Shown one piece after another: positions 4,222 through 25,144 of a stretch of DNA of 64,000 bases (the first letter of the stretch is position 1; each line of letters starts with the position of its first letter). The position numbers were made by a program, and so were the translations under genes. The notes beneath the pieces were generated by a model that was not told where the DNA came from, did no database searches, and saw only the letters and a list, made by a program, of their open reading frames with translations. The stretch lies in NCBI RefSeq assembly GCF_046105845.1, contig NZ_CP151004.1. One strand, 5' to 3'. The DNA is from Escherichia coli (GTDB lineage Bacteria > Pseudomonadota > Gammaproteobacteria > Enterobacterales > Enterobacteriaceae).

Positions 4222-4604
4222 TAGTTTTATATTCTATTTCTTATCATTTAAACTTGTTTTTTTACTAGTCCATCACACAACACATTAAGACTATTCCTAA
4301 CACCTCAGGGCAAAGTTCCTGGCTAATATAAAATGCAAGTAAGAATTGAACGTTATATTGCCAATAACCTTATGAAACTGAATGTCTTTTTCTTCTTATC
4401 AAAAAAGCAATATTTTCATTTTTTGTAAATATTGACTTAACCATGGAATTCCTTTTCTGTTCACATATTGACACTCATCAGGAAAAAAACATAAATTTAA
4501 ACCTAATCGAAATAATTAAAACTTAATCTCGTTTAACCTATATTGATATGTGCTACGTATCTTATTTACTTCCGATTTACTAAAGAAACTGAATGTACCT
4601 GTAA

Positions 4605-5216
<612 letters not shown>

Positions 5217-5290
5217 ACTCCAGGCAAGTTAGTTTTAAAAAATGACTCACAGGGACATCACGTCCTCAATTCAACTCGGGAAGAAAAGCA

Positions 5291-5878: not shown

Positions 5879-5933
5879 TCTCTCTGATGTACCAGCAGGG
5901 GTCCCCCCTGCTTTATTCCTGGACGGAATTGTT

Positions 5934-6602
5934 ATGAAAAAGCACCTTCTGCCTCTCACTCTGCTGTTTTCCGGAATATCTCCGGCCCAGGCGCTGGATG
6001 TCGGCGATATATCATCGTTTATGAACAGTGACAGCAGCACGCTGAGCAAAACGATCAAAAACAGTACCGACAGTGGTCGCCTCATCAATATCCGTCTCGA
6101 ACGGCTCTCTTCACCGCTTGACGACGGGCAGGTTATCGCAATGGACAAGCCGGATGAGTTGCTACTCACTCCCGCCAGCTTGCTGCTACCCGCCCAAGCC
6201 AGCGAAGTGATCCGCTTCTTCTATAAGGGACCCGCAGATGAAAAAGAGCGCTACTACCGCATTGTCTGGTTTGATCAGGCCCTCAGTGATGCGCAGCGCG
6301 ATAATGCCAACCGAAGCGCTGTAGCCACTGCTTCCGCCCGCATCGGCACCATTCTGGTCGTCGCCCCTCGCCAGGCGAACTACCACTTTCAGTACGCCAA
6401 CGGCTCCCTGACAAATACAGGAAATGCGACGCTGCGGATCCTCGCCTACGGCCCCTGCCTGAAAGCCGTCAATGGTAAGGAGTGTAAAGAGAATTACTAC
6501 CTGATGCCGGGCAAGTCGCGTCGTTTTACCCGCGTGGACACTGCGGATAACAAAGGACGGGTTGCACTTTGGCAGGGTGATAAGTTCATTCCCGTGAAAT
6601 AG
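5934..6602 (+). CDS. ecpB: ECP periplasmic chaperone
   Basis: 222 aa, signal peptide; shares the ...[19 protein letters not shown]... block with EcpE at 10755..11465; operon position. Confidence 0.88.
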
Positions 6603-6627
6603 ATAGCTGTGCAGATGGATAACGACA

Positions 6628-9153
6628 ATGCCTTTACGACGGTTCTCCCCAGGACTGAAAGCCCAGTTTGCCTTCGGCATGGTCTTTTTGTTCGTTCAGC
6701 CCGATGCCAGCGCTGCTGACATAAGTGCGCAGCAAATAGGTGGGGTGATTATTCCGCAGGCCTTCAGTCAGGCGCTTCAGGACGGCATGAGCGTCCCGCT
6801 CTATATTCATCTCGCCGGTAGCCAGGGTCGCCAGGACGATCAGCGAATCGGCAGCGCTTTTATCTGGCTGGATGATGGACAGCTACGCATCCGGAAAATA
6901 CAGCTTGAAGAGAGTGAAGATAACGCCAGTGTCAGCGAACAAACTCGACAACAGCTGATGGCTCTGGCGAACGCCCCGTTCAATGAGGCCCTTACCATCA
7001 CACTGACTGACAACGCGCAGCTGGATCTCAGCTTGCGCCAACTGCTGCTGCAGCTGGTGGTCAAGCGCGAAGCGCTTGGCACCGTACTACGCTCACGTAG
7101 CGAAGACATCGGGCAGTCCAGTGTTAACACCCTCAGCAGTAATCTGAGCTATAACTTCGGCATCTATAACAACCAGTTGCGTAACGGCGGGAGCAACACC
7201 TCCAGCTATCTGTCGCTGAATAACGTTACTGCGCTGCGCGAACATCACGTGGTGCTCGACGGCTCACTGTACGGGATTGGTAGCGGTCAACAGGACAGTG
7301 AATTATATAAAGCGATGTATGAACGCGATTTTGCCGGTCACCGATTTGCCGGTGGAATGCTCGACACCTGGAACTTGCAGTCCTTAGGGCCGATGACCGC
7401 CATTTCAGCAGGGAAGATTTACGGCCTTTCCTGGGGAAACCAGGCCAGCTCCACCATCTTCGACAGCAGCCAGTCGGCCACGCCAGTGATCGCCTTTTTA
7501 CCGGCGGCGGGCGAAGTACATCTCACCCGTGATGGCAGGCTACTAAGCGTTCAGAACTTCACCATGGGCAATCATGAAGTGGATACCCGGGGTCTACCGT
7601 ACGGTATTTACGATGTGGAAGTTGAGGTCATCGTTAACGGTCGCGTGATCAGCAAACGCACTCAACGGGTCAATAAGCTGTTTAGCCGGGGGCGCGGCGT
7701 CGGTGCACCACTGGCGTGGCAGATATGGGGCGGTAGCTTTCATATGGATCGCTGGTCGGAAAACGGGAAAAAGACGCGACCAGCCAAAGAGAGTTGGCTG
7801 GCAGGTGCCTCGACCTCCGGCTCACTGAGTACGCTTAGCTGGGCGGCAACGGGATATGGATACGATAATCAGGCCGTGGGTGAAACCCGTCTGACGCTGC
7901 CGCTTGGGGGGGCGATCAACGTTAACCTGCAAAATATGCTGGCCAGTGACAGCTCATGGAGCAGCATCGGCAGCATCAGCGCCACTCTACCGGGAGGCTT
8001 TAGTTCGCTGTGGGTTAATCAGGAAAAAACCCGCATTGGCAATCAATTGCGACGTAGCGATGCCGACAACCGTGCTATCGGCGGCACACTCAACCTGAAC
8101 TCACTGTGGTCGAAGCTGGGTACGTTCAGCATCAGCTACAATGATGACCGCCGCTACAACAGCCATTATTACACGGCAGATTACTATCAAAGTGTCTACA
8201 GCGGTACCTTTGGTTCGCTTGGCCTGCGGGCCGGTATTCAGCGCTATAACAACGGCGACAGCAGCGCCAATACAGGGAAATATATCGCTCTCGATCTCTC
8301 GCTACCACTGGGCAACTGGTTTAGCGCAGGGATGACCCATCAAAACGGCTACACCATGGCAAACCTGTCAGCACGCAAACAGTTTGATGAAGGAACCATT
8401 CGCACTGTTGGTGCCAATCTGTCACGAGCCATCTCCGGCGATACCGGTGATGACAAAACCCTCAGCGGTGGGGCGTATGCACAGTTCGACGCTCGTTACG
8501 CCAGCGGAACGCTGAACGTCAATAGCGCGGCGGACGGCTACATCAATACCAACTTGACCGCCAATGGCAGCGTCGGCTGGCAGGGTAAAAACATCGCTGC
8601 CAGCGGGCGGACTGATGGCAACGCTGGGGTGATATTCAACACCGGGCTGGAGGACGACGGTCAGATCAGCGCCAAAATCAACGGGCGGATTTTCCCGCTT
8701 AACGGCAAGCGTAACTATCTCCCGCTCTCTCCCTATGGAAGATATGAGGTGGAGTTACAGAACAGCAAAAACTCACTCGACAGCTACGATATCGTCAGCG
8801 GCCGCAAAAGCCATCTGACTCTCTATCCAGGCAATGTCGCTGTCATTGAGCCAGAGGTGAAGCAGATGGTTACCGTCTCCGGTCGTATCCGTGCGGAAGA
8901 CGGCACACTGCTGGCTAACGCACGGATTAACAACCATATCGACCGAACCCGAACCGATGAAAACGGCGAGTTTGTCATGGATGTGGACAAGAAATACCCC
9001 ACTATCGATTTTCGCTACAGTGGCAATAAAACCTGCGAAGTGGCACTGGAACTCAACCAGGCGCGCGGTGCCGTCTGGGTCGGTGATGTGGTCTGCAGCG
9101 GCCTCTCATCGTGGGCGGCGGTGACGCAGACAGGAGAAGAGAATGAGAGTTAA
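6628..9153 (+). CDS. ecpC: ECP outer-membrane usher
   Basis: 841-aa ORF with signal peptide, usher-like size and composition, operon position. Confidence 0.9.
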
Positions 9154-10786
9154 CCTACTGATAGCGATGATAATCTTTGCGCTAATCTGGCCTGCAACCG
9201 CGCTCAGAGCGGCAGTGAGCAAAACAACCTGGGCGGATGCTCCGGCACGCGAGTTTGTGTTTGTCGAAAACAACTCAGACGACAACTTTTTCGTCACGCC
9301 TGGCGGGGCGCTGGATCCGCGCCTGACCGGTGCCAACCGCTGGACCGGTTTAAAATACAATGGTTCAGGAACCATCTATCAGCAAAGTCTCGGCTACATT
9401 GATAACGGTTACAACACCGGCCTTTATACCAACTGGAAGTTTGATATGTGGCTGGAAAATTCACCAGTTTCATCTCCTTTAACTGGCTTGCGCTGCATCA
9501 ACTGGTACGCCGGGTGTAATATGACCACCAGTCTTATCCTGCCGCAAACCACCGACGCCAGTGGATTTTATGGCGCGACGGTGACCAGCGGCGGCGCGAA
9601 GTGGATGCACGGCATGTTGTCAGACGCGTTTTACCAGTATCTGCAACAAATGCCCGTCGGCAGCAGCTTTACAATGACCATCAATGCCTGCCAGACCTCT
9701 GTGAACTATGACGCCAGCAGCGGCGCACGCTGTAAGGATCAGGCCTCCGGCAACTGGTATGTTCGCAACGTCACCCATACGAAAGCAGCAAATCTACGGT
9801 TGATAAATACCCACTCGCTGGCGGAGGTGTTTATCAACAGCGACGGAGTACCGACTCTGGGCGAAGGGAACGCCGACTGCCGGACGCAAACCATCGGCAG
9901 CCGTTCAGGATTAAGTTGTAAGATGGTTAACTATACCCTGCAAACAAACGGACTCAGCAACACCTCAATCCATATCTTCCCGGCGATCGCCAACTCGTCG
10001 TTAGCCTCGGCCGTCGGGGCGTACGATATGCAGTTCAGTCTGAATGGCAGTTCATGGAAACCGGTGAGCAATACTGCCTATTACTACACCTTCAACGAGA
10101 TGAAGAGCGCAGACTCGATCTATGTTTTCTTCTCGAGCAACTTCTTTAAGCAGATGGTGAACCTCGGGATCAGCGATATCAACACCAAAGATCTATTCAA
10201 CTTTCGCTTTCAGAACACCACATCACCGGAGTCTGGCTGGTATGAATTTTCTACCTCCAACACGCTGATTATCAAACCCCGTGATTTCAGCATCAGTATT
10301 ATCTCCGATGAATATACTCAGACACCGTCGCGGGAGGGATATGTTGGCAGCGGCGAGTCGGCACTCGATTTCGGCTATATCGTAACCACCAGCGGTAAAA
10401 CAGCTGCCGACGAAGTGCTGATCAAGGTGACCGGACCCGCGCAGGTGATTGGCGGGCGCTCCTATTGTGTCTTCAGCTCCGATGATGGTAAGGCGAAAGT
10501 ACCGTTCCCGGCGACGCTTTCCTTTATTACCCGCAGCGGAGCTACAAAAACCTACGATGCCGGGTGCGATGATAGCTGGCGGGATATGACCGATGCGCTG
10601 TGGCTGACCACACCGTGGACTGATATCTCTGGCGAAGTGGGGCAGATGGATAAGACCACAGTCAAATTTTCGATTCCAATGGATAACGCCATTTCGCTGC
10701 GTACGGTAGATGATAACGGCTGGTTTGGCGAAGTCAGCGCTTCAGGAGAGATTCATGTTCAGGCGACGTGGCGTAACATTAACTAA
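9143..10786 (+). CDS. ecpD: ECP tip adhesin/polymerised subunit
   Basis: 547 aa, signal peptide, 11-bp overlap with the ecpC stop; operon position. Confidence 0.88.
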
Positions 10787-11465
10787 GGCCCTGCTGACAG
10801 TGGTCTGTATGCTGGCGGCACCTTTGACACAGGCGATTTCGGTCGGCAATCTGACTTTTTCACTGCCGTCCGAGACTGACTTTGTCAGCAAACGTGTAGT
10901 GAATAACAACAAAAGCGCACGGATATACCGTATTGCCATCAGTGCTATTGATAGCCCGGGCAGCAGTGAATTGCGCACCCGACTGGTGGATGGTGAACTG
11001 CTTTTCGCCCCCCGCCAGCTGGCGTTGCAGGCTGGTGAGAGCGAGTATTTTAAATTTTACTATCATGGTCCACGGGATAACCGCGAGCGCTACTACCGGG
11101 TCTCATTTCGCGAGGTCCCCACTCGCAACCAGACAAGACGCAGCCCAACCGGCGGCGAGGTCAGCACGGAGCCGGTGGTGGTGATGGATACCATTCTGGT
11201 AGTACGACCTCGTCAGGTTCAGTTTAAATGGTCCTTCGACCAGGTGACAGGAACGGTAAGTAACACTGGCAACACATGGTTTAAGCTACTGATTAAGCCA
11301 GGATGTGATTCGACCGAAGAGGAAGGCGATGCCTGGTATCTACGTCCGGGAGACGTGGTTCATCAGCCTGAGTTACGTCAGCCGGGGAATCATTATCTGG
11401 TCTATAACGACAAATTCATTAAGATTAGCGATTCCTGTCCGGCTAAGCCCCCTTCGGCGGACTAA
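10755..11465 (+). CDS. ecpE: ECP second periplasmic chaperone
   Basis: Start set at the internal Met ([14 protein letters not shown]...), giving 236 aa with a signal peptide; paralog of EcpB. The ORF track extends to 10710. Confidence 0.85.
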
Positions 11466-11777
11466 GACTTATCCATCGGTCGAGGGAAGAATTCCACCTC
11501 AGAGCCCCAAAAATCGTTTAAATGATGTGGAAGCGATCGTCAATGTCACCTGTAATGATGGGCTTTCTCATATGCACACCATAGTGTTCAGGAGACACGG
11601 AAAGGTACCAGGCAGCCTGCTAACGAGTGGTTTATTCACGAATTAGTACGTAAAATCGGTAAAGGCTGGAAATCATTCAATACTCACACTATCGAAAGTT
11701 CCCCAGCCAACCGCGGTACGTTCTTACATACGATGTACCGCTGTTCTCTTTACGATTTATAGCTGTACTGGTGAATT

Positions 11778-12107
11778 ATGAGCAATCTGAATCCATGCAT
11801 GACGTGTGGTGCCTGTTGTGCATTTTTCCGCGTCTCTTTTTACTGGGCCGAAGCCGACGATGCTGGCGGTACCATTCCCGCCAGGCTCACTGAACAAATA
11901 TCCCCTTTTCACCGATGCATGAGCGGTACCAATCAGAAAAACCCCCGATGTATTGCCCTTGCAGGAACACCGGGCAAAAATGCCTGCTGCACGATATATA
12001 AAAATCGATCGTCCACGTGCAGAGAATTCGCCATGTCTGGTGAGAACGGAGTCGTCAATGAGGCTTGCAATCGTGCAAGAGCTAAATACGGGCTGACACC
12101 GTTATAA
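11778..12107 (+). CDS. ykgJ: YkgJ family Cys-rich (putative Zn/Fe-chelating) protein
   Basis: 109 aa with CxxC-rich N-terminus ([11 protein letters not shown]); conserved K-12 neighbourhood between ecpE and yagU. Confidence 0.85.
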
Positions 12108-12130
12108 ATATGCAATAATTAATTGCACTG

Positions 12131-12163
12131 CCCCGCCAGCTATAATCGCGGGGCTTCGTTTTT
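12131..12163 (+). terminator. rho-independent terminator after ykgJ
   Basis: GC stem CCCCGC...GCGGGG followed by a T-run (CTTCGTTTTT). Confidence 0.5.
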
Positions 12164-12317
12164 CAGGGATAACAAAACCCGAAACTTCTTCCATCTGCCA
12201 GCAACAATGCCTCTTCCTCTATAGTGTTCTCCGGATCTACAGCATCCTGAAGTAGCGCGATGTACTCATTGGCTATCTGCGTCAGAAAGTTAAAAACAAT
12301 GTTTTTAACCTATAAAA

Positions 12318-12342
12318 ATGGCGCTGTATTTGCGCCATTTTT
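12318..12342. terminator. bidirectional hairpin terminator between ykgJ and yagU
   Basis: AAAAATGGCGC-TGTATTT-GCGCCATTTTT: perfect stem flanked by an A-run and a T-run, immediately 3' of yagU (minus strand). Confidence 0.55.
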
Positions 12343-12355
12343 ATCATTCAATGCA

Positions 12356-12970
12356 TTATCTGTTTGAGCCTAAAGGGATCTCAGGGTCTGGCTCATGAGT
12401 AATTCTGTTTCGTAAATCTCTGCGAATAATTTCAATGGACCAGAACCAGACTAAATGTCCAAAAATTTCAGAAACATTCTCATACCACGGGAGATCAAAC
12501 AGAGGTGGCGTCAGTCCCATGAGAGGGAATGAAATCATATGAACAAAAAGTTGGGCTAAAGCACCTGCCAGTAAGCCCTGCCAGAGTTTAATTTTTGGAA
12601 ATACTTCAGCGACCACACAGTAACCAACGGCAAACACTATCGAAAAGATAATGTGCGTAACGCCAACCCAGTTAAAGACATGCCCGGCAAAGGTATAAAC
12701 AGCCGCATTGGGATCTGTCAGCCCTAGCCAGTCTCGAAGAAAAATATACGGAGGATTGAGAAAATTACGGGAGCAATCAATTTGCCCAGCAGCCCTGATT
12801 AATGATTCCGGGCCACACGCTGCATTAAACATATCCACCGGGCTACGTGGCGGCAATGGAACTTCAGCCCCCCACTTCACAAATGCGGAAACAACGCCAG
12901 CAATCAGCCCAATGAATGCAGCAAGACCATAACGTCTGCGGTTCGGTGGAGTTTGTTCAAATATATTCAT
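12356..12970 (-). CDS. yagU: inner membrane protein YagU (DUF1440 family)
   Basis: 204 aa with several hydrophobic helices; K-12 neighbourhood. Confidence 0.85.
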
Positions 12971-13376
12971 ATCTACCCTGCTTGTACCATTATGTTATAC
13001 ACCTCTTCAGGAGTATTCATAAAACAAGACAAATGTAAAGAACTGTATTGTTTTGTATAACAAAATAGTTTCCTAATCGCCAATGAATATAAGCACCATC
13101 ATTTCTCCCTATTTTTATGTTAGAAGTGACAAAGATTTGTAGGGTGATGCAGAGCTGACAATCACAGGTTTCCTTATCGGTTTTTGCATCGCACAACTAA
13201 AGCAATAAACGAGCTCCCGTCATCGGCGAATATGAATTAATTAGCCGGGCTCATAGCTGCATTCGCGTTTTAAGAATAATCCTCCTGCTCTCACCGACTA
13301 TGCTTAACATTTAAAAAAGCATCAGCACTCTCGCAACGCTCTCTTATTTTCCCCTTTAGAATACCGGAGGCCTGGT

Positions 13377-14066
13377 ATGAGCAACCAAGGCGAATACCCC
13401 GAAGATAATCGGGTTGGGAAGCACGAGCCGCACGATTTTAGTTTGACCCGTCGCGATCTGATTAAAGTCAGCGCCGCAACGGCGGCGACCGCCGTGGTTT
13501 ATCCTCATTCTACGCTTGCAGCAAGCGTTCCGGCAGCTACACCCGCGCCCGAGATAATGCCCCTGACACTTAAGGTGAACGGCAAAACCGAGCAGTTGGA
13601 CGTTGATACCCGAACCACGCTACTGGACGCTTTGCGTGAAAATCTGCATCTGATCGGTACCAAGAAAGGTTGCGATCACGGGCAGTGCGGAGCCTGTACC
13701 GTGCTGGTCAATGGTCGCAGGCTTAATGCCTGCCTGACGCTTGCAGTCATGCATCAGGGGGCCGAGATCACCACCATTGAAGGCCTGGGTTCACCAGAGA
13801 ATCTTCACCCCATGCAGGCGGCCTTTATCAAGCATGATGGCTTCCAGTGCGGCTACTGCACCTCCGGGCAAATTTGCTCATCAGTAGCGGTGCTAAAAGA
13901 GATTCAGGACGGCATTCCCAGTCACGTCACGGTCGATTTGGTTTCCCCTCCAGAAAGAACTGCCGATGAGATCCGTGAACGTATGAGCGGCAACATCTGT
14001 CGCTGTGGTGCATACGCTAACATCCTTGCCGCCATTGAAGATGCTGCGGGGGAGATAAAATCATGA
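13377..14066 (+). CDS. paoA: periplasmic aldehyde oxidoreductase, [2Fe-2S] subunit with Tat signal
   Basis: 229 aa; twin-arginine motif TRRDLIK; ferredoxin-type cysteine clusters ([24 protein letters not shown]). Confidence 0.9.
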
Positions 14067-15019
14067 AGGCGTTTACCTATGAACGAGTGAACACCCCGGC
14101 CGAGGCGGCACTTAGCGCTCAGCGCGTACCCGGCGCAAAATTTATCGCTGGCGGGACCAATCTGCTGGACCTGATGAAGCTGGAAATTGAAACGCCCACC
14201 CACCTTATCGATGTGAACGGCCTCGGGCTCGATAAGATTGAAGTGACCGACGCGGGTGGGCTGCGCATCGGCGCACTGGTACGGAACACCGACCTGGCGG
14301 CTCACGAGCGCGTGCGTCGTGATTACGCGGTACTCTCCCGCGCCCTGCTCGCTGGCGCGTCTGGTCAGTTACGTAATCAGGCAACCACCGCAGGTAATCT
14401 GCTCCAGCGCACGCGCTGCCCCTATTTTTACGACACCAATCAGCCCTGCAATAAGCGCCTGCCCGGGAGCGGCTGCGCGGCACTTGAAGGCTTTAGCCGT
14501 CAGCACGCGGTGGTAGGCGTAAGCGAAGCCTGCATTGCCACCCATCCGAGCGATATGGCGGTCGCAATGCGGTTGCTGGATGCGGTAGTGGAAACCATCA
14601 CGCCGGAGGGAAAGACTCGCAGTATCACACTGGCTGATTTTTATCACCCACCGGGGAAAACGCCGCACATTGAAACCGCCCTGCTTCCCGGTGAGCTTAT
14701 CGTTGCGGTGACGTTACCTCCGCCGCTCGGCGGAAAACATATCTACCGCAAGGTGCGCGATCGCGCCTCCTACGCCTTTGCTCTGGTGTCGGTCGCGGCG
14801 ATTATCCAGCCAGACGGCAGCGGGCGCGTCGCACTGGGCGGAGTAGCTCATAAGCCCTGGCGCATTGAGGCTGCGGATGCTCAGCTATCCCAGGGGGCGC
14901 AGGCCGTGTATGACGCGCTGTTCGCCAGCGCCCATCCCACCGCTGAAAACACCTTTAAACTCCTGTTGGCGAAGCGAACGCTTGCCTCCGTACTGGCTGA
15001 AGCGAGGGCACAGGCATGA
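14063..15019 (+). CDS. paoB: aldehyde oxidoreductase FAD-binding subunit
   Basis: 318 aa; start overlaps the paoA stop (ATGA coupling); CO-dehydrogenase flavoprotein-like. Confidence 0.9.
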
Positions 15020-17214
15020 AATTTGATAAACCCGCAGGGGAAAACCCGATCGATCAGCTGAAGGTTGTCGGTCGTCCCCATGACCGCATCGACGGACCGC
15101 TGAAAACTACTGGCACGGCACGCTACGCCTACGAATGGTATGAAGAAGCTCCCAACGCCGCCTATGGTTATATCGTCGGTTCCGCCATTGCCAAAGGATC
15201 CCTCACCGCCCTCGATACGGACGCCGCGCAAAAAGCGCCGGGCGTACTGGCTGTCATTACCGCCAGTAACGCCGGGGCACTCGGCAAAGGCGACAAAAAC
15301 ACCGCCAGGCTGTTAGGCGGCCCCACTATTGAGCACTATCATCAGGCCATTGCGCTGGTAGTGGCTGAGACCTTCGAACAGGCGCGAGCGGCGGCCTCGC
15401 TGGTGCAGGCGCACTATCGCCGTAATAAAGGAGCTTACTCCCTGGCGGACGAGAAACAGGCCGTCAGTCAGCCGCCGGAAGACACGCCCGATAAAAATGT
15501 TGGTGACTTTGACGGGGCTTTCACCTCCGCTGCGGTGAAGATTGATGCTACCTACACGACCCCGGACCAGAGCCATATGGCGATGGAGCCGCATGCCTCG
15601 ATGGCCGTCTGGGATGGAAATAAGCTTACTCTCTGGACCTCAAATCAGATGATTGACTGGTGCCGCACCGATCTGGCAAAAACGCTGAAAGTGCCCGTGG
15701 AGAATGTGCGTATTATCTCCCCGTATATCGGCGGAGGGTTTGGCGGCAAGCTGTTCCTGAGAAGCGATGCGCTGCTGGCGGCCCTCGCCGCCCGTGCGGT
15801 GAAACGTCCGGTTAAAGTGATGCTCCCCCGCCCCACTATTCCCAATAACACCACGCACCGCCCCGCCACCCTTCAGCACTTGCGTATCGGTACTGACCAG
15901 AGCGGGAAAATCACCGCTATCTCACATGAAAGCTGGTCCGGAAACCTGCCCGGCGGCACGCCGGAAACGGCGGTACAGCAAAGCGAATTACTCTACGCCG
16001 GAGTGAGTCGTCATACCGGCCTGCGGCTCGCCACGCTTGATTTGCCGGAAGGGAACGCCATGCGTGCGCCCGGCGAAGCCCCCGGTCTGATGGCGCTCGA
16101 AATCGCGATCGATGAACTGGCGGAAAAAGCGGGCATCGATCCCGTCGAGTTTCGCATCCTGAATGACACTCAGGTTGACCCCGCCGACCCGACGCGCCGC
16201 TTCTCTCGCCGTCAGCTTATCGAGTGCTTGCGCACCGGAGCGGATAAATTTGGCTGGAAGCAGCGCAACGCCACACCCGGACAGGTGCGCGACGGGGAGT
16301 GGCTAGTCGGCCACGGCGTCGCAGCGGGCTTTCGCAATAATCTGCTGGAAAAATCGGGTGCGCGGGTTCATCTCGAACAAAACGGCACCGTTACCGTGGA
16401 AACGGACATGACCGATATTGGCACTGGCAGCTACACCATTCTGGCCCAGACGGCAGCGGAAATGCTTGGCGTACCGCTGGAGCAGGTTGCGGTTCACCTC
16501 GGCGATTCCAGTTTCCCGGTTTCTGCGGGGTCTGGTGGACAATGGGGCGCGAATACCTCCACCTCCGGCGTTTACGCCGCCTGTGTGAAGCTTCGCGAAA
16601 TGATTGCCTCGGCAGTCGGGTTTGATCCTGAGCAGTCGCAGTTTGCCGACGGCAAGATTACCAACGGTACCCGAAGCGCCATGCTACATGAGGCCACCGC
16701 AGGCGGCAGACTGACAGCGGAAGAAAGCATTGAATTCGGAACACTGAGCAAGGAGTACCAGCAGTCGACCTTTGCCGGGCATTTTGTGGAGGTCGGCGTG
16801 CATAGCGCGACGGGAGAAGTTCGGGTCCGGCGTATGCTCGCTGTGTGTGCTGCAGGACGCATCCTGAATCCGAAAACTGCACGCAGCCAGGTCATTGGCG
16901 CAATGACTATGGGCATGGGCGCGGCACTGATGGAGGAGCTGGCGGTGGATAACCGTTTGGGCTACTTCGTTAATCACGATATGGCGGGGTATGAGGTTCC
17001 GGTCCATGCGGATATCCCAAAACAGGAGGTGATTTTCCTGGATGATACCGACCCCATATCCTCCCCGATGAAGGCCAAAGGTGTCGGTGAGCTGGGCCTG
17101 TGCGGCGTGAGCGCGGCTATCGCCAACGCGGTGTATAACGCCACCGGTATTCGGGTACGGGATTATCCCATCACTCTGGATAAGCTGCTCGATAAGCTGC
17201 CGGATGTGGTTTAA
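15016..17214 (+). CDS. paoC: aldehyde oxidoreductase molybdopterin-binding catalytic subunit
   Basis: 732 aa; xanthine-dehydrogenase-family large subunit; start overlaps the paoB stop. Confidence 0.9.
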
Positions 17215-17223
17215 GGAGGAACA

Positions 17224-18180
17224 ATGTCATACCCACTTTTTGACAAAGACGAGCACTGGCATAAGCCAGAGCAGGCGTTTCTCACCGATGACCACCAGGC
17301 CATTCTGCGCTTCGCCGTAGAGGCGCTAATGTCCGGTAAAGGAGCGGTGCTGGTGACGCTGGTGGAAATACGCGGCGGCGCGGCGCGCCCGCTCGGGGCG
17401 CAGATGGTGGTGCGCGAAGATGGCCGTTACTGCGGTTTTGTCTCTGGCGGCTGCGTGGAGGCCGCTGCCGCTTTTGAAGCGCTGGAGGTGATGGGCTCAG
17501 GCCGCGATCGCGAAGTTCGCTATGGCGAAGGTTCACCGTGGTTTGACATCGTTCTGCCCTGCGGCGGTGGGATCACGCTGACGCTCCATAAACTACGCTC
17601 GGCACAGCCTCTGCTCGCCGTGCTGAACCGCCTGGAACAGAGAAAACCGGCGGGTCTGCGCTACGATCCGCAAGCTCAATCGCTGGTGTGCCTGCCCACG
17701 CAAACCCGGACGGGCTGGAATCTCAATGGCTTTGAGGTGGGGTTCAGGCCATGCGTCAGGCTGATGATTTACGGACGTTCTCTTGAGGCGCAGGCAACCG
17801 CGAGTCTTGCAGCAGCCACAGGCTATGACAGCCATATCTTCGATCTTTTTCCGGCCTCAGCCAGCGCTCAGATCGATACCGATACGGCGGTCATTTTGCT
17901 GTGCCATGATCTCAACCGGGAGCTGCCAGTGTTGCAGGCCGCGCGAGAAGCAAAACCCTTTTATCTCGGCGCATTGGGCAGCTATCGAACCCACACGTTA
18001 CGTCTGCAAAAGCTCCACGAGCTGGGATGGTCCAGGGAGGAAACAACGCAAATCCGGGCACCCGTCGGGATATTCCCCAAAGCCCGGGATGCGCATACTC
18101 TGGCACTCTCCGTGCTGGCAGAAGTCGCCTCTGTACGTCTCCATCAGGAGGAGGATTCATGCCTGCCCCCGTCGTCCTGA
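17224..18180 (+). CDS. paoD: molybdenum cofactor insertion chaperone (XdhC family)
   Basis: 318 aa immediately after paoC; XdhC/CoxI-like. Confidence 0.85.
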   Translation: MSYPLFDKDEHWHKPEQAFLTDDHQAILRFAVEALMSGKGAVLVTLVEIRGGAARPLGAQMVVREDGRYCGFVSGGCVEAAAAFEALEVMGSGRDREVRYGEGSPWFDIVLPCGGGITLTLHKLRSAQPLLAVLNRLEQRKPAGLRYDPQAQSLVCLPTQTRTGWNLNGFEVGFRPCVRLMIYGRSLEAQATASLAAATGYDSHIFDLFPASASAQIDTDTAVILLCHDLNRELPVLQAAREAKPFYLGALGSYRTHTLRLQKLHELGWSREETTQIRAPVGIFPKARDAHTLALSVLAEVASVRLHQEEDSCLPPSS

Positions 18181-18245
18181 TCCTTGCGGCCGGGCGTGGA
18201 GAGCGCTTTCTCGCCTCCGGGGGAAATACCCATAAATTAAGAGAA
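18159..18245 (+). pseudogene. 5' stub of a MobA/MocA-like molybdenum-cofactor nucleotidyltransferase gene
   Basis: RBS AGGAGGAGG then ATG at 18159 overlapping the paoD stop. First ~27 aa (MPAPVVLILAAGRGERFLASGGNTHKL) fit the N-terminal NTP-transferase motif; the frame then runs into the convergent MFS gene with no further family signal. 3' boundary approximate. Confidence 0.4.
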
Positions 18246-18359
18246 AAATCTGCAGTAGTCGTTTTAGAAAATCACCTAAATCGTTTAAAAGAGCGCCCAA
18301 CCCATAGTGGGCGCTCATCGCCTTGTGTGACTTATTCAGCAACGCGCACCCTCGCCGGA

Positions 18360-19553
18360 CTAAAGCGCACCGGCCTTCTGGCGTGCGGTAACAAAGGTCA
18401 GTACGCCAGCGCAAAGGAGCAGCACGCTACTCATAGCAAACGTGCTCTGCCAGCCAAGGCGGTCAAATACGATGCCTCCTGCTGTTGATCCAAGGGCGAT
18501 GGCGAGCTGAATCACCGCGACCATGAGCCCGCCTCCGGCTTCGGCGTTGTCAGGCAACGTACGCGCAATCCATGTCCACCATCCGGTTGGCGCGGCGGTG
18601 GCCAGCATGCCCCAGAGTCCTAACAGCAGCGAGACCGTCCAGACGTGATGCCCGGTCAGCATCAGACCGATAGCAATGACGGCCATCAGTCCGGGTATGG
18701 CCATCAGCGTGGGGTAGAATTTTCTGTTGAGAAATGCCGAAACAACCAGCGTGCCAATAAAACCGGCCACGCCGATAATCAGCAAAATCAACGACAAGCC
18801 TAAGGAATTAACCCGTGTCACCGACTCCAGAAACGGGCGCACATAGGTGAATAGTGCAAACTGCCCCATGAAAAACAGGCAGCAGGCTATCATGCCGACC
18901 ACAACCATGCGGCGGCTAAATAAGCGGAATACCGCGCCACATGAAGTGTGGCTTTTATTCGCATCCATGCTTGGCAGGCTGATGCACTGCCAGATAAAGG
19001 CGACAACCGCGATGGGCACCAGGCACAAGAAAGCGCCTCGCCATCCGACCGTAGCCCCCAGATAGCTTCCCAGCGGTGCGGCCACGACCGTCGCCAGCGC
19101 ATTACCGGCGTTGAAAATTGCCAGCGCACGCGTGACCTGATGCTGCGGCACCAGACGAATCGCCGTTGCCGCTGACATCGACCAGAATCCGCCAATAGCC
19201 ACACCAATCATCGCACGACCGACCATATACATCAGATAACTGGAAGCCAGCGCAATAATAAGCCCCGATACGGCCATCAGAACCGTCATCCCCAGCAGCA
19301 GGAACTTACGATTCATCTTTCCAGCTAGCGTTGAAAGCGTCAGGCTGGTCAGAACCGCCAGCGCGCCGGAGATAGCAATCCCCTGCCCTGCCAGCCCCTC
19401 CGTCACGCCTAAATCGCGGGTAATCGGCGTGAGCAGGCTGACGGGCATAAATTCAGAAGCAATCAGCACAAACACGCACAGGGTCATGGCAAAAATACCG
19501 CCCCAGTATGCGCGCTGATGATGAGGTGATAGTGTTTGGCTTAGTGTCGACAT
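18360..19553 (-). CDS. MFS transporter (12-TM, sugar/drug efflux-like)
   Basis: 397 aa, highly hydrophobic with repeated TM helices; hairpin GAGCGCCCA...TGGGCGCTC lies just 3' of it at about 18290-18316. Confidence 0.8.
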   Translation of the reverse strand: MSTLSQTLSPHHQRAYWGGIFAMTLCVFVLIASEFMPVSLLTPITRDLGVTEGLAGQGIAISGALAVLTSLTLSTLAGKMNRKFLLLGMTVLMAVSGLIIALASSYLMYMVGRAMIGVAIGGFWSMSAATAIRLVPQHQVTRALAIFNAGNALATVVAAPLGSYLGATVGWRGAFLCLVPIAVVAFIWQCISLPSMDANKSHTSCGAVFRLFSRRMVVVGMIACCLFFMGQFALFTYVRPFLESVTRVNSLGLSLILLIIGVAGFIGTLVVSAFLNRKFYPTLMAIPGLMAVIAIGLMLTGHHVWTVSLLLGLWGMLATAAPTGWWTWIARTLPDNAEAGGGLMVAVIQLAIALGSTAGGIVFDRLGWQSTFAMSSVLLLCAGVLTFVTARQKAGAL

Positions 19554-19628
19554 AGTGAAATTTCACAAAGATCAGGATAAAAGCCACCAGCCTATGGCCG
19601 GTGGCTTTGCATCAATTCAGGAGAGGTT

Positions 19629-20786
19629 TTATTTCAGTTTGGTCTGGAAAAATTGTTCGAACTTCGCGAAAGGTATTTTTCCGGCCACGTTATCGTACAG
19701 GTCCACGTGATTTGCCCCTGGTACCACCACCAACTCTTTGTCTTTACTGCCAACCGCCTTGTAAGCATCTTCAGCAAAATAGCGTGAATGTGCTTTCTCA
19801 CCGGTCACAATCAGCGTCGGAATGGTGATTTCACTGGCGTAGCTCAACAGCGGCATATTCATAAATGACAGCGGCATCGTTGCCGTCCACGCCCCGGTAG
19901 AGTTAACGGAACGTTCGTGGAAGCCGCGCGGCATGCGATAGTAGTCAAAGAACTCTTTCAGTACCGGATGAGGATTTGCCGGCAGCGTTTCTGGCAGAAT
20001 GCGCTCGCCAGCACTGACCTTGCCGTTGCTATCGACATTAATATCATGACCACCGTGAGCGAACGTTCCGCTCTGCGCATCCTGCCAGCGCTGTTCATTC
20101 AGATATTGCAGAACGGCACGACGGTCGGCGGTAGAATAACGGTCTTTGCCATCCCCCACACCATGACCCATCGCCCGGCTCATGTCATACATCACGCTGG
20201 TAGCTACCGCTTTAACGCGGGTATCCATCGCCACGTCGTTCAGCGCCATGCCGCCCCAGCCACAAATACCGAGCAGCCCGATACGGTTGCGATCTACCTC
20301 TTTTTGCAGCCCTAAGAAATCCACCGCCGCGCTGAAATCTTCAGTGTTGATATCCGGTGAGGCGACGTTTCGCGGATAGCCGCCGCTTTCCCCGGTGTAA
20401 GAAGGATCGAACGCCAGGGTAACAAACCCTCGTTCCGCCAGCGTCTGCGCATACAGGCCGCTGGATTGCTCTTTCACCGCGCCAAATGGCCCACTGACCG
20501 CAATCGCCGCCAGCTTGCGATCGCCACGGTCTTTAGGCAGGTAAAGATCGCCCACTAAGGTGATGCCATATCGGTTCGGGAACGAGACTTTACGGTGATC
20601 GACTTTCTGGCTCTCGGCGAACGTTTTATCCCATTTATCTGTCATGGACACAGGGGCATTAGGATTGGTTGAATCAGCATAACTCATTGTCGTGACCCCA
20701 CTTAATGATGCGAAAAGCAGCATGGTCGGCATCGCGGTTTTTAGCGTTCGGGTGAAGGCTTTCATAAAAATCCCCATAAAAAACAA
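19629..20786 (-). CDS. secreted alpha/beta-fold hydrolase (dienelactone-hydrolase-like)
   Basis: 385 aa; signal peptide (MKAFTRTLKTAMPTMLLFASLSGVTTMSYA, so the true start may be the internal Met); paralog of the partial ORF at 1..874. Confidence 0.8.
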   Translation of the reverse strand: MFFMGIFMKAFTRTLKTAMPTMLLFASLSGVTTMSYADSTNPNAPVSMTDKWDKTFAESQKVDHRKVSFPNRYGITLVGDLYLPKDRGDRKLAAIAVSGPFGAVKEQSSGLYAQTLAERGFVTLAFDPSYTGESGGYPRNVASPDINTEDFSAAVDFLGLQKEVDRNRIGLLGICGWGGMALNDVAMDTRVKAVATSVMYDMSRAMGHGVGDGKDRYSTADRRAVLQYLNEQRWQDAQSGTFAHGGHDINVDSNGKVSAGERILPETLPANPHPVLKEFFDYYRMPRGFHERSVNSTGAWTATMPLSFMNMPLLSYASEITIPTLIVTGEKAHSRYFAEDAYKAVGSKDKELVVVPGANHVDLYDNVAGKIPFAKFEQFFQTKLK

Positions 20787-20951
20787 CAGAGAGATACAGG
20801 TTTCCGACGGACAACGCTGCGGTGCTTTACTTTGATGGGGTCATTATAGTGAGCAGAATTAGTGCTGATTAGGGGGCGATTAATGCTAAGATTAATACCA
20901 TATTGTTATAAATTAATGCGGAGATTGCCGGCATGAAGGGGGGATGTTTCA

Positions 20952-21836
20952 ATGGCGAAAAGGGAGAACTACAACGAGCTGTACCTGTTTATGCAGGTGG
21001 TGCGGGAAGGCAGCTTTACCGCAGCGGCTCAGCGGCTGGGTCTTGCTCAGTCAGGAGTCAGCCGTTCTGTTCGCGAGCTTGAAGAAAGGCTCGGCGTCCA
21101 GCTGCTAGTGCGCACCACGCGTAAACTGTCGCTGACACAAGCAGGCGAGCAGCTCTACCAGAAGACGGCATCTGGATTTGAAATGTTAGATCTTGGGCTT
21201 GCCACGCTGGCGCACTATCGAGAGACGCCCTCCGGCACGGTGCGTATCAATGCCAGCCAGCACGCGATTGATAAATGCCTGCTGCCAAAGCTGGCGGTAT
21301 TTAAACAGCGATATCCTGATATCCGGCTTGAACTGATAAATGAGAGCCGGTTCGTCGATATCATCGAGGAAAGATTCGATGCAGGTGTCCGCCTGGGGCC
21401 TGAAGTCGGCCAGGGTATGGTCGCGGTACGCATCACGCCCGATATGGAGATGGCAATTGTGGGGACTCCGGAACATTTTCGTCGCTATGGTTTTCCGCAA
21501 ACCCCGGCGGATTTAAAGGCGCATCCCTGTATCGCCTATCAGTTTGCCGACGGCAGCGTATACCAGTGGGAACTCAATCAGGATGATAAAAAAATCACTC
21601 ATCGCCCTGAAGGGCAATGGGCCTTATCCGACAGCTATATGGAAGCAGAAGCCGCCCGGCTGGGCCTCGGATTGGCCTATGTTCCTGTTGAACTGGTCGC
21701 GGATGATTTAGAACACGGTAAGCTTATCAGGGTGTTGCAGCGTTACAGCCTGCGAATGGAGGGATTGTTTCTCTATTACCCTCATCGCAACGTCTCCCCC
21801 GCCCTGCGGATGGTCATTGATACATTGAAAATCTGA
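20952..21836 (+). CDS. LysR-family transcriptional regulator
   Basis: 294 aa; N-terminal HTH (FTAAAQRLGLAQSGVSRSVRELEERLGVQLL) typical of LysR; divergent from the hydrolase/MFS pair. Confidence 0.85.
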   Translation: MAKRENYNELYLFMQVVREGSFTAAAQRLGLAQSGVSRSVRELEERLGVQLLVRTTRKLSLTQAGEQLYQKTASGFEMLDLGLATLAHYRETPSGTVRINASQHAIDKCLLPKLAVFKQRYPDIRLELINESRFVDIIEERFDAGVRLGPEVGQGMVAVRITPDMEMAIVGTPEHFRRYGFPQTPADLKAHPCIAYQFADGSVYQWELNQDDKKITHRPEGQWALSDSYMEAEAARLGLGLAYVPVELVADDLEHGKLIRVLQRYSLRMEGLFLYYPHRNVSPALRMVIDTLKI

Positions 21837-22058
21837 ACGTTAATAACGACCGACTCTTCACTGTGCAACATTGTGTCAGGTAGTCCCTCTGCGTTCAATT
21901 CCAGGGTCTGCTTTGAGCGAGAAAGAGGGGACTATCCAGCAATGGAGATCACCCAAAAGAAAAAACCACCTGGCTCCCTCGACAACCTTCATCCAGGCAT
22001 TTAGCCTCAATCAACATTTTTATATCTGTCAGGTTACTTCATGATGAAAACTGATCAT

Positions 22059-22305
22059 TATCGTTGTTTTTGTTGCAATAGTAGAATACGCGTATTTATT
22101 CCTCCATCTCTATTAATAACGGCAATAAACTGTTCACTTCACTGATATTTAAAATATGTATCCTTTTCAAGCTGTTCAGCGGCGTAAGAAAAAGTATTAA
22201 TTATGAATTCGACGATTTAACCATATCTGTCTGATTGGTAATCATCCGTGATTAATGTTGGTCTATTGATTACGCCAGCATTAACCGCTTAGGGATGTAT
22301 TCTTC
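22059..22305. repeat. degenerate second copy of the ykgR/ykgO flanks with ykgM and most of ykgO missing
   Basis: 22059..22153 aligns by eye with 2775..2873 (ykgR 3' half and downstream) and 22156..22305 with 3558..3705 (ykgO 3' end and downstream), with scattered substitutions; the ~680 bp carrying ykgM/ykgO is absent between the two blocks. Confidence 0.7.
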
Positions 22306-22607
22306 CTGTTGATATCCCCCCCTCGAAAAAGAGAGAAAATAAAACTGTGTCCAATATTACTCTACCACTCCAGACCGAAGCATCGGTGGGATTAGCAGGA
22401 CGACTGGTACAGAAGGATGGTATAGCGTCATTTGTCGGGCATTCCATTGCCATAATAATGACAATTTTGAATCAATAGACATGCTTCTTGATCATGTCTT
22501 AAAAATTAGACCATGAGCCTTACGAAGCATCATTTTTACTGACTGGTATTAACTTTGCTATCATATAAACTCTGTTCTTAAAAACGCGCCCAGAATTTAT
22601 ATGATTT

Positions 22608-22748
22608 TCATTGTTTTTCTGCCTGTAAAGAAATTTCTTTTTCAGTGCTGTCGATGGTTGAACCGACGGCAGTAATCGTTTTGGCGACGCTACTGAAGGA
22701 TATTAAAGACAGTGTAACCACAACAATTAAAGAATAGATAATATTCAT
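22608..22748 (-). CDS. small hydrophobic/secreted protein (46 aa)
   Basis: ATG at 22748 preceded by AGGAGA RBS; MNIIYSLIVVVTLSLISFSSVAKTITAVGSTIDSTEKEISLQAEKQ, an N-terminal hydrophobic helix then a polar tail. The ORF track gives a longer version from 22796. Confidence 0.4.
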   Translation of the reverse strand: MNIIYSLIVVVTLSLISFSSVAKTITAVGSTIDSTEKEISLQAEKQ

Positions 22749-22963
22749 GCTAATTCTCCTGACAATTGAGAGGATGAGTTTTATATACAAAGGCATTAAA
22801 TATGAGTCATGTTTACTCCCTGTGAAAATAATCTTACTGTAATTAAACCTTCATCTCCTTCGGAGTGAGCAATGCATAATATAATGCATCTTGCTATTCA
22901 AAACAGTGGATATAAATTTTCCTCGCGACCTATTTAATAAAACGTGAATATAAAAGTTAGTCT

Positions 22964-23515
22964 TCAGTTTGCAGATGCAGTAGGTCTGATGGTAATTTCG
23001 GTTGTATCAACTGTTTCGGGAGATTCAATAATATGCCTTACAGCACGGGCAATATCCGCGGGTTGAAGTGCAACAGAACGGTAGGCGTCCATTGACTTCA
23101 TGGTTTCCACATGGGTAATGGTTGAAGCCAGTTCACTTTCTACAACCCCAGGATTTACGCAGGTCACACGGATTTTCGAGCTTTCCTGCCGTAAGCCATC
23201 CGAAATAGCCCGTACTGCAAATTTTGATGCACAATAGACTGCGCCTGTGGGCACAACAGAAAGGACACCAATAGAACCAAGATTGATTATCTGACCGGAA
23301 CCCTGTGCTTCCATCACCGGAAGTACAGCGCCAATTCCCCAAAGTACGCCTTTGATATTCACGTCAATAGTGAGTTCCCATTCATCTTGTTTTCCTGCTG
23401 CAAGCGGTGAAAGCGGCATAACGCCCGCATTATTGATAAGAACATCAACTCGCCCCCAGCTATCCAGCGCTGCTTGCACGAAATCGGCCATGGACTGCCG
23501 GTCTGTGACATCCAA
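22964..23515 (-). pseudogene. short-chain dehydrogenase/reductase (SDR), N-terminally truncated
   Basis: 183-aa ORF has the SDR core (NNAG, catalytic Y...K in VYCASKFAV) but lacks the N-terminal TGxxxGxG NAD-binding segment; its 5' end abuts the integrase remnant. Confidence 0.7.
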
Positions 23516-23519
23516 CTTG

Positions 23520-23686
23520 CATTTTCAGAAATGGGAGGCTGGGAGTCTATCGAAATGGTTCGTCGATATGCTCACCTCGCGCCTAATCACCTTACCGAAC
23601 ACGCACGGCAAATAGACTCAGTCCTGAACCCATCGGTCCCAAATTTGTCCCAGTCAAAAAATAAGAAAGGTACTAATGATGTGTAA
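23520..23686 (+). pseudogene. tyrosine-recombinase (phage integrase) C-terminal remnant
   Basis: ...[28 protein letters not shown]... matches the conserved C-terminal tyrosine-recombinase block (catalytic Y in RYAHL) and ends 14 bp from the tRNA 3' end; no upstream integrase body. 5' boundary approximate. Confidence 0.6.
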
Positions 23687-23700
23687 CTTATTGATTTAAA

Positions 23701-23776
23701 TGGTGCCGATAATAGGAGTCGAACCTACGACCTTCGCATTACGAATGCGCTGCTCTACCAACTGAGCTATATCGGC
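23701..23776 (-). tRNA. thrW: tRNA-Thr (anticodon CGU)
   Basis: The reverse complement reads GCCGATATAGCTCAGTTGGTAGAGCAGCGCATTCGTAATGCGAAGGTCGTAGGTTCGACTCCTATTATCGGCACCA: cloverleaf, CGT anticodon, CCA end; next to proA as in K-12. Confidence 0.9.
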
Positions 23777-23890
23777 CCTGAAAGGACATGTTCACGAACG
23801 TGAATCACGGTGGACAAGGTTAAAACTAACCGGGCGATGCGTCAATGGCCTTGTGAATCAAATGGCTACTTTTGCATCACCCGGTTTTAT

Positions 23891-25144
23891 TTACGCACGA
23901 ATGGTGTAATCACCAATGCCGATCCACTTGTAAGTGGTCAGTGCTTCCAGCCCCATTGGGCCACGCGCGTGGAGTTTTTGTGTGCTTACCGCCACTTCCG
24001 CACCCAGACCAAACTGGCCGCCGTCGGTAAAACGCGTAGAGGCGTTAACGTAAACAGCGGACGAATCCACTTCGTTAACAAAACGCTGGGCGTTGCGCAT
24101 ATCGCGGGTCAGGATCGCATCGGAGTGTTGTGTGCCGTGTTCACGAATATGGGTGATGGCATCGTCAAGATCGCTGACGATTTTGACGTTCAAATCTAAT
24201 GACAGAAACTCATCGTCATACTCTTCCGCTTTCACAGCCACCACCTTCGCGGGGCCTGTCTGCAACTGCGCCAGCGCAGCTGCATCTGCGTGTAATGTCA
24301 CGCCGCTTTCCGCCATTTGTTTGCTTAATGCGGGCAGGAAGCTGTCGGCGATGTTTTTATTCACCAGCAACGTTTCAACCGTATTACATGTGCTCGGACG
24401 CTGGGTTTTCGCGTTGACGATTACTTTCAGGGCTTCAGCGATCTCTGCACTTTCATCAACATAAATATGGCATACGCCTATACCACCTGTGATCACCGGG
24501 ATCGTCGACTGTTCGCGGCACAGTTTATGCAGGCCAGCGCCACCACGCGGGATCAGCATGTCGATGTATTTATCCATACGCAGCATTTCACTGACCAGCA
24601 CACGGTCAGGATTATCAATCGCCTGCACGGCACCCGCCGGTAAGCCGCAGGATTTCAGGGCGTCCTGAATCACCGCCACCGTTGCAGCGTTAGTGCGACA
24701 CGTTTCTTTGCCGCCGCGCAGGATCACCGCGTTACCTGTTTTCAGGCACAGCGAAGCGACATCTACCGTCACGTTCGGGCGCGCTTCATAAATCACGCCA
24801 ATCACCCCCAGCGGCACGCGACGGCGCTCCAGACGCAGACCACTGTCCAGTACGCCGCCATCGATTACCTGCCCCACCGGATCGGCGAGATTACACACCT
24901 GACGCACATCGTCGGCGATGTCTTTCAGCCGTGCGGGCGTCAGTGCCAGACGGTCAAGCATCGCTTCGCTAAGGCCATTGGCACGCGCGTCAGCAACATC
25001 CTGGGCGTTAGCGTTGAGGATGATTTCGCTTTGTGCTTCCAGTTCATCGGCGATTTTTTCCAGCACACGATTTTTTTCGCGGCTGGAGAGTTGCGCTAAT
25101 TTATACGAGGCTTGCTTTGCGGCAATGCCCATTTGTTCCAGCAT
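23891..25144 (-). CDS. proA: gamma-glutamyl phosphate reductase
   Basis: 417 aa, aldehyde-dehydrogenase-like; conserved proBA operon. Confidence 0.9.

Follow-up and report, generated by a model that had tools for sequence, protein, structure and literature searches.

The window analysed here, a stretch of 64,000 nucleotides of Escherichia coli DNA, contains the ykgR-ykgM-ykgO locus and, about 19 kb away, a second and degenerate copy of the sequences that flank ykgM and ykgO, which raises the question of how the flanks came to be present twice and the genes between them only once. The ykgM and ykgO genes form a Zur-repressed operon that encodes zinc-independent paralogs of ribosomal proteins L31 and L36, and ykgR, which lies upstream, encodes a small membrane protein. 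A preliminary description of the window had proposed two histories for the second copy: an ancient segmental duplication followed by deletion, or the acquisition of ykgM and ykgO as a cassette between pre-existing repeats. The anatomy given there (the homology itself, a start-less ykgR, eight codons of ykgO and the bracketing of the intervening genes) holds, but neither history does. Instead, the second copy is probably a non-functional fossil, namely the 5′-truncated remnant of a short allele of the ykgR locus.

Anatomy of the second copy

When positions 21700–22700 were compared by BLASTN with the whole 64-kb window, the reported similarity proved real and resolved into two collinear blocks on the same strand. 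The first block (B1; B1a in copy 1, the intact locus, and B1b in copy 2) aligns 22048–22164 with 2767–2883 over 117 bp at 90.6% identity, without gaps (E = 1e-41), and the second (B2 in copy 1 and B2′ in copy 2) aligns 22164–22313 with 3554–3703 over 151 bp at 78.8% identity, with two gaps (E = 1e-29). These boundaries are slightly wider than the limits of 22059–22153 and 22156–22305 proposed earlier. No other match to the copy-2 region in the 64 kb was better than E = 0.004, which is chance level, and neither permissive +1/−1 scoring nor tblastx added homology in the flanks beyond B1 and B2. The copies have the same orientation and are offset by 19,281 bp; the longest uninterrupted identity between B1a and B1b, read from the sequence, is ~16 bp. 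The relevant features of the window are these:

2734–2835, + strand: intact ykgR of copy 1, 33 codons plus stop (ORF list, K-12 annotation)
2767–2883, + strand: B1a, comprising ykgR codons 12–33, the stop and 48 bp downstream (BLASTN)
2884–3553, + strand: 670 bp present only in copy 1, comprising the ykgR-ykgM spacer, a palindrome, ykgM and most of ykgO
3158–3175: 18-bp perfect palindrome ahead of ykgM
3187–3450, + strand: ykgM (ORF list)
3450–3590, + strand: ykgO, type B ribosomal protein L36 (ORF)
3554–3703, + strand: B2 of copy 1, comprising the last ykgO codons, the 3′ UTR and two hairpins (BLASTN, RNA fold)
20952–21836, + strand: LysR-family regulator, the last gene between the copies (ORF, RefSeq annotation)
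21837–22047, + strand: 211-bp spacer from the LysR stop to copy 2
22048–22164, + strand: B1b, a start-less ykgR fragment and 48 bp downstream (sequence, BLASTN, PGAP)
22164–22313, + strand: B2′ of copy 2, comprising the ykgO relic (22174–22200) and a decayed 3′ UTR (sequence, BLASTN, fold)
22518–22796, − strand: small Escherichia-specific secreted-protein gene, truncated here, adjoining copy 2
22964–23515, − strand: SDR oxidoreductase without its N-terminus, in the right flank common to copy 2 and the short allele
23701–23776, − strand: tRNA-Thr (CGT), thrW, an island-integration site

B1 starts exactly at codon 12 of ykgR and extends 48 bp beyond the ykgR stop, and B2 starts 12 codons ahead of the ykgO stop. 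As the preliminary description had stated, copy 2 lacks ykgM and all but the end of ykgO; the gap, put there at ~680 bp, measures 670 bp (2884–3553) and takes in the 18-bp palindrome as well, and in this window a further 9 bp have been lost at the junction relative to other alleles. Copy 2 is thus homologous to the intact ykgR-ykgM-ykgO locus in the same order and orientation, and differs from it in lacking the ykgR start and first 11 codons, the palindrome, ykgM and 38 of the 46 codons of ykgO.

The ykgR-like frame of copy 2 (22048–22116) consists of codons 12–33 followed by TAA. Translation of 22048–22113 gives KLIIIVVFVAIVEYAYLFLHLY, which is homologous to YkgR (Pfam PF28062, a family that is also called on the orthologous 33-aa genes of other loci) and has the same residue as the YkgR of the window at 19 of the 22 positions from 12 to 33. 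The frame contains no ATG, GTG or TTG and is preceded directly by an in-frame TGA (22045–22047); copy 2 therefore holds no complete ~33-codon YkgR ORF with a start, and the earlier term start-less was apt. The ykgO relic, GTT CAG CGG CGT AAG AAA AAG TAT TAA (22174–22200), aligns with V Q G R K K K R and the stop, and its stop occupies the same position as that of ykgO in copy 1, so that the eight codons originally noted are indeed retained, together with the stop. A complete ~46-codon ORF for type B L36 (ykgO/rpmJ2, PF00444) is not found in copy 2, the upstream codons being deleted in every genome examined. A protein identical to YkgO occurred in the arrangement ykgR-ykgM-ykgO-ecpR in every context returned.

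The ykgR half of copy 2 has been annotated before. In other strains PGAP labels the 69-bp fragment 'small membrane protein YkgR; incomplete; missing N-terminus', as for XF37_RS28510 of O157:H7 Rafaela_II, in which the same 69 bp lie at the same site downstream of LysR, and in some RefSeq records the same fragment is only a partial 'hypothetical protein'. The PGAP pseudogene covers the ykgR fragment only. What remains is an annotation gap: the ykgR fragment is inconsistently named, and the ykgO relic and decayed 3′ UTR are unannotated in the records inspected. The literature searched on ykgR, and on ecp in the cryptic clades, gives no account of a second copy or of a tie to a short allele. Copy 2 is in this sense partly known already; as gene relics go it is ordinary, and its history is of modest interest.

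That the two copies bracket the ecp-pao region is borne out by collinearity with K-12, in which 297715–313807 (ykgP to paoD) is collinear with 2170–18235 of the window at 97.5% identity. Between the copies lie ykgM, ykgO, ykgL, ecpRABCDE, ykgJ, yagU, paoABCD and genes for an MFS transporter, an alpha/beta hydrolase and the LysR regulator.

Distribution of copy 2 and of a single-copy short allele

Of 5,426 complete E. coli genomes, 909 carry copy 2 together with its left spacer, among them those of E. coli C, O157:H7, O145:H28 and PCN033, and 83% lack it. The LysR spacer accompanies LysR and copy 2 in each of the 21 long-type metagenome contigs that reach that far upstream, and has no counterpart in the short-allele loci compared. 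The preliminary description had asked whether the second copy ever retains ykgM or ykgO, and the answer is negative. When a chimeric query that restored ykgMO between B1b and B2′ was searched in sensitive mode, with coverage of at least 80% of the query taken as the threshold, none of the 5,426 E. coli genomes matched. Moreover, a metagenome scan for a B2′-specific motif yielded 25 matches (22 long loci with copy 2, two short loci and one chance match), and none of the 24 true matches was a pre-deletion intermediate with ykgMO between B1 and B2′. The ykgM-ykgO segment of the window itself (2884–3553) is 100% identical to that of PCN033 and at least 99% identical to the sequence in only 42 records, most genomes being ~95–96% identical to the window over this segment; deeply diverged ykgM-ykgO alleles coexist in E. 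coli.

A crossover query, in which copy-1 upstream DNA and the 5′ end of ykgR were fused to B1b, B2′ and the copy-2 right flank, was matched in one piece, from window position 2606 onward, by three of the 5,426 genomes (6EVA, wlxctx60 and GF4-3). All three matches are short alleles, and no crossover hybrid (copy-1-like 5′ part, copy-2-like 3′ part) was found in the 5,426 genomes. The three loci contain fdeC, an oxidoreductase remnant, intact ykgR, a small hypothetical gene, SDR and LysR and, further on, an integrase remnant, thrW and proA, and they lack at this locus ykgM, ykgO, ecp, pao, the MFS and hydrolase genes and the first LysR gene. In other words, the short allele is without all of the 19,281 bp between the window copies, and its SDR gene is followed by the second LysR gene and then by thrW. 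In the alignment the intact ykgR of the short allele runs directly into the copy-2 deletion junction and the ykgO relic, and the junction (...ATCC(T/C)...CTGCTTTTCAAGCTGTTCAG...) is identical in copy 2 and in the single-copy loci with an intact ykgR. Collinearity of copy 2 with the short allele begins at ykgR codon 12 and extends through SDR (92.5% identity over 1.48 kb), and all of the DNA to the right of copy 2 is collinear with that allele as well. Two of the E. coli short alleles are ~4% apart (96.4% identity over 18.7 kb; 95.3% over 2.85 kb), and the short arrangement is therefore old; introgression, as opposed to retention of ancestral alleles, could account for the three short E. coli genomes.

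In GF4-3 (locus L016, ~9280–9310) the 9-bp unit GTTCAAGCT is present three times in tandem at the deletion junction, as against one copy in all other alleles, which looks like slippage at the junction. A terminator-like hairpin at 2692–2716 of the window (GCACTTACGAAGTGC, then ACTCTTTTTT) precedes the ykgR start codon by 18 bp, and its conservation extends to the short alleles and the non-coli lineages.

Short loci outside E. coli were reached through more distant homologs of the Escherichia-specific small secreted-protein gene. In these loci, LysR and SDR are accompanied by the small gene and, ~400 bp from it, a complete 33-codon ykgR that matches PF28062. In one group (L017–L020) the small protein is also found in Escherichia sp. 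KTE114 and the rcl genes are 89% identical to those of K-12, and a second group (L023–L025) is 85–86% identical to the window. Further short loci come from an assembly labeled E. fergusonii (L021) and from two metagenome contigs (L052 and L063). The label of L021 is doubtful, because its contig is 95.7% identical to the window over the gpt-proA housekeeping genes. Taken together, the short-allele set comprises two non-coli Escherichia lineages, the E. fergusonii-labeled assembly, three of 5,426 E. coli genomes and two metagenome contigs, in a survey whose non-coli part left out E. albertii, the E. fergusonii type strain and named E. marmotae, E. ruysiae and E. whittamii. In a separate scan of species-representative genomes, the first exact B1 motif was broken by a GGC/GGA polymorphism present in K-12, and the only matches to a second B1 motif were a contaminant contig resembling E. 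coli and an unrelated contig from a MAG. A 403-bp contig of the Sulfoacidibacillus thermotolerans Y002 assembly (L008; NZ_MPDK01000122.1), which carries a K-12-type ykgR with E. coli flanks, is almost certainly E. coli contamination of that assembly.

Divergence of the blocks and the order of events

In B2, copy 1 is 21–29% from every B2′; the B2′ of copy 2, by comparison, is 3–8% from those of the E. coli short alleles, and both are 11–13% from other lineages. Because copy-1 B2 stands at 21–29% as compared with 11–13% among the B2′ sequences of the different species, the split between B2 and B2′ would, on these distances, predate the split between the species. In B1 and the DNA upstream of it, copy 1 and copy 2 form a cluster with the E. 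coli short alleles, at distances of 1–11% as against 7–18% to other lineages. In particular, B1a and B1b are 8–11% apart and either is 12–18% from other lineages, copy-1 upstream DNA together with B1a is only 1–5% from the E. coli short alleles, and the upstream 160 bp, which have no second copy, are E. coli-like (1.3–3.2%). Copy 1 differs from 6EVA at 8 of 277 positions in the upstream DNA plus B1 and at 36 of 140 in B2 (p = 4e-12), and on account of this jump in divergence we regard copy 1 as a mosaic, with a left part that is E. coli-like and a right part that is deeply diverged. The orthologous comparison, between the KTE114-type lineage and 6EVA, gave no such jump from B1 to B2 (p = 0.85). 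Part of the 21–29% B2 distance could stem from a faster rate and not from greater age: copy-1 B2, which spans the ykgO 3′ UTR and terminator, differs by 10–12% between the window allele and those of K-12 (L003) and 24A16 (L007), and the 160 bp that precede ykgR codon 12 are 0–1.2% divergent among the window, K-12 and 24A16.

Individual sites in B1 tie copy 2 to the short allele. At columns 9 and 33, every copy-2 sequence and every E. coli short allele has a derived state that no copy 1 shares. The monophyly of copy 2 is recovered in 70% of bootstraps; the grouping of short alleles with copy 2 has no node at or above 50%, in a block of only 117 bp with one conflicting site, column 54, which joins copy 1 with the short alleles. 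The collinearity through SDR, together with the derived states at columns 9 and 33, leads us to read copy 2 as a decapitated short allele.

The deletion junction also bears on the order of events. It is found in lineages that are 11–15% diverged from E. coli, and the two B1 copies are only 8–11% apart, for which reasons the deletion of ykgMO appears to predate the event that gave rise to two copies of B1. Duplication followed by deletion, the first of the two histories proposed earlier, thus has the events in the wrong order, since the same junction occurs in single-copy loci with an intact ykgR; likewise, an intragenomic duplication followed by decay of one copy fails because this junction is present in single-copy loci of other Escherichia and of three E. 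coli genomes. The second proposed history was right in that the ykgMO DNA is extra relative to the short allele, and wrong in detail. The repeats were not pre-existing, because the short allele has a single ykgR block; the extra DNA amounts to 19.3 kb, not the ~680 bp of the supposed cassette; and the ykgO relic indicates that an earlier ykgMO was present at this place and was then lost.

A version of the duplication hypothesis confined to E. coli would have ykgR-ykgM-ykgO duplicated in an ancestor of E. coli, copy 2 losing ykgMO thereafter and the short loci arising later by recombination between the repeats. The presence of two copies in the same orientation 19.3 kb apart, the microhomology at the deletion junction, the rarity of short alleles in E. 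coli (three of 5,426) and the fact that short-allele B1 is about equidistant from copy 1 and copy 2 are all in its favor. We nevertheless consider this sequence of events improbable. It does not explain the same junction in single copy in the lineages 11–15% diverged from E. coli, and the distance between the B1 copies (8–11%, versus 12–18% to those lineages) makes the duplication younger than the deletion. In addition, short-allele B1 is copy-2-like at its 5′ sites and copy-1-like at its 3′ sites; a deletion between B1a and B1b would leave the opposite pattern, and the short alleles are therefore not crossover products. Finally, the longest identity between B1a and B1b, ~16 bp, is too short to be an efficient substrate for RecA-dependent recombination in E. 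coli.

Just as improbable, in our judgment, is that the long two-copy arrangement is ancestral to the genus, with gene conversion of B1 within species and independent loss of the 19 kb elsewhere. Copy 1 and copy 2 do share polymorphisms at B1 columns 46, 54 and 60, and states resembling those of copy 2 are present in the divergent copy-1 allele of strain 24A16. However, several independent and precise losses would have had to leave one and the same structure, and conversion would have had to be confined to B1, yet the upstream 160 bp are equally E. coli-like (1.3–3.2%). Moreover, no long locus from outside E. coli was among the loci recovered.

The fossil reading of copy 2 can be set out as four steps. 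An ancestral Escherichia locus would have contained ykgR-ykgM-ykgO. A deletion of 670 bp between short TTTT-n-AAG repeats, which are seen on both sides of the 670 bp in copy 1, would then have taken out ykgM and the greater part of ykgO before E. coli diverged from the other lineages that carry the short allele. As such a deletion is irreversible, the ykgMO of copy 1 must descend from an allele that had separated before it. Within the lineage of E. coli, a ykgR-ykgMO locus that had escaped the deletion and had ~18 kb on its right (ykgL, ecp, ykgJ, yagU, pao and the MFS, hydrolase and LysR genes) may next have been joined illegitimately to a short allele, whose ykgR was met at codon 12 by the end of the LysR spacer; this would have left an intact ykgR on the left (copy 1) and a decapitated ykgR on the right (copy 2). 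Either the 19-kb block would have entered a chromosome with the short allele, or a chromosome that already bore the block would have captured a short-allele fragment. Copy 2 would thereafter have drifted, with the additional loss of 9 bp at the junction in this window.

Neither B1 copy has a deeply diverged part, which speaks against a single crossover of Campbell type, with a deeply diverged donor, as the joining event. Homology-facilitated illegitimate recombination, which operates in naturally transformable bacteria, leaves gene fragments at the borders of large insertions, and copy 2 resembles such borders in having one intragenic junction, microhomology of a few bases at most and a duplicated fragment that flanks a large block; the resemblance is one of anatomy, from which a mechanism of this kind is inferred. 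As to the source of the block, we suggest only tentatively, and with rather less confidence than we have in the fossil reading, that the 19.3 kb from ykgM to LysR were a lineage-specific re-acquisition, from a donor lying outside the divergence of E. coli and its sister lineages, into a locus from which ykgMO had been deleted.

Copy 2 at the edge of the thrW region

Copy 2 contains no start codon, Zur box, terminator, predicted promoter or match to an RNA family, and we therefore assign it no present function. The 18-bp palindrome GTTATGTTATAACATAAC, which we regard, from the known Zur-regulated ykgM promoter, as the Zur box of ykgM, is found only once in the window (3158–3175, in copy 1) even when two mismatches are allowed, and not in copy 2. 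On the + strand no promoter-like site was found upstream of copy 2, and searches of Rfam 15 at E ≤ 1 returned no match in 2000–5000 and, in 21000–24500, only thrW as a real match. B2 of copy 1 folds into an 8-bp hairpin (3619–3637) and a 16-bp hairpin (3640–3676) followed by TTTTCTT, the latter looking like the terminator of the operon (fold of −33 kcal/mol, z = −4.9). In the corresponding hairpin of copy 2 (22252–22284) the stem is interrupted and weakened and is followed by CCGCTTAGGG, without a T-run, and a terminator scan reported no intrinsic terminator in copy 2.

That copy 2 is nonetheless functional, as a 34-codon ORF, a small RNA or terminator, or a recombination site at the edge of the thrW islands, is very unlikely: an ATG-started ORF (22041–22145) that reads B1 in another frame is open in all aligned copy-2 alleles, the hairpin still folds (z = −3.2) and the homology of AbiE-island strains to the window ends within it (~22278–22280), but that frame is closed by a stop in copy 1 and by a TAA just before the block in the short allele, so that the ORF was absent before the junction formed, the hairpin has no T-run, neither promoter-like site nor Rfam match is present, and copy 2 is missing from most E. 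coli genomes and, where present, is 7–8% diverged between strains, with small indels.

The DNA to the right of copy 2 is the thrW integration hot spot, which holds strain-specific AbiE islands, islands with retrons or other reverse transcriptases, or prophage DNA, and this flank is hypervariable because thrW is a site of island integration. The copy-2 relic sits exactly at the edge of this hypervariable defence-island region. In strains with an AbiEi/AbiEii island (L004 and L005, ~4420–4460), homology to the window stops at ~22278–22285, in the 3′ arm of the copy-2 hairpin, and in other strains the break is at ~22398, with a retron island beyond. K-12 is without copy 2; in place of window 18236–23682 it has a yagP fragment and the CP4-6 prophage (K-12 297203–297714). 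The end of the K-12 prophage carries a 70-bp partial copy of thrW. The K-12 yagP is annotated as a LysR substrate-binding fragment; the notion that the LysR gene of the window (20952–21836) is its ortholog was dropped, as BLASTN shows no DNA homology between the two.

The genes on either side of copy 2 may belong to horizontally mobile modules. On the left, homology to the LysR module of other genera stops at the LysR stop codon; a module of MFS, hydrolase and LysR genes is found in Kluyvera, Citrobacter and an unknown organism (L010–L012 and L014) at 82–90% identity and in unrelated contexts. On the right, homologs of the SDR protein are spread over Pantoea, Enterobacter, Klebsiella and others. 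The loci with LysR or SDR homologs in Kluyvera, Citrobacter, Pantoea, Klebsiella and others contained no remnant of ykgR or ykgO. The small secreted-protein gene next to copy 2, whose named homologs are all from Escherichia or Shigella, encodes 76 or 92 aa where it is intact in other strains; in this window a premature stop leaves an ORF of 62 aa (22608–22796), and the gene is a pseudogene here. No relation of ykgL to this gene was found.

Neither the K-12 annotation from ykgR to paoD nor that of strain 19KM1831 from paoD to copy 2 includes an integrase or transposase; in 19KM1831 the nearest integrase remnant lies beyond copy 2, at thrW. We accordingly rejected the possibility that the two copies are terminal repeats or att sites of a mobile element, there being no integrase or transposase inside and the repeats being gene fragments of 117 and 150 bp.

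The value of the relic lies in the order that it gives to events in the thrW-proximal region, which is among the most rearranged parts of the E. coli chromosome, and not in any new mechanism. It indicates that the genus once lost ykgMO at this locus, and it provides a simple sequence marker with which to tell the long haplotype from the short one. In E. coli, ykgMO, ecp and pao lie on 19 kb that have no counterpart here in several sister lineages and in a few E. coli strains, which bears on how "core" these genes should be considered, ykgMO being a model for responses to zinc limitation and ECP being the common pilus of E. coli. If the block was indeed re-acquired, then the zinc-sparing paralogs of L31 and L36, the common pilus and the periplasmic aldehyde oxidoreductase would have arrived together, and copy 2 would be the scar of their arrival.
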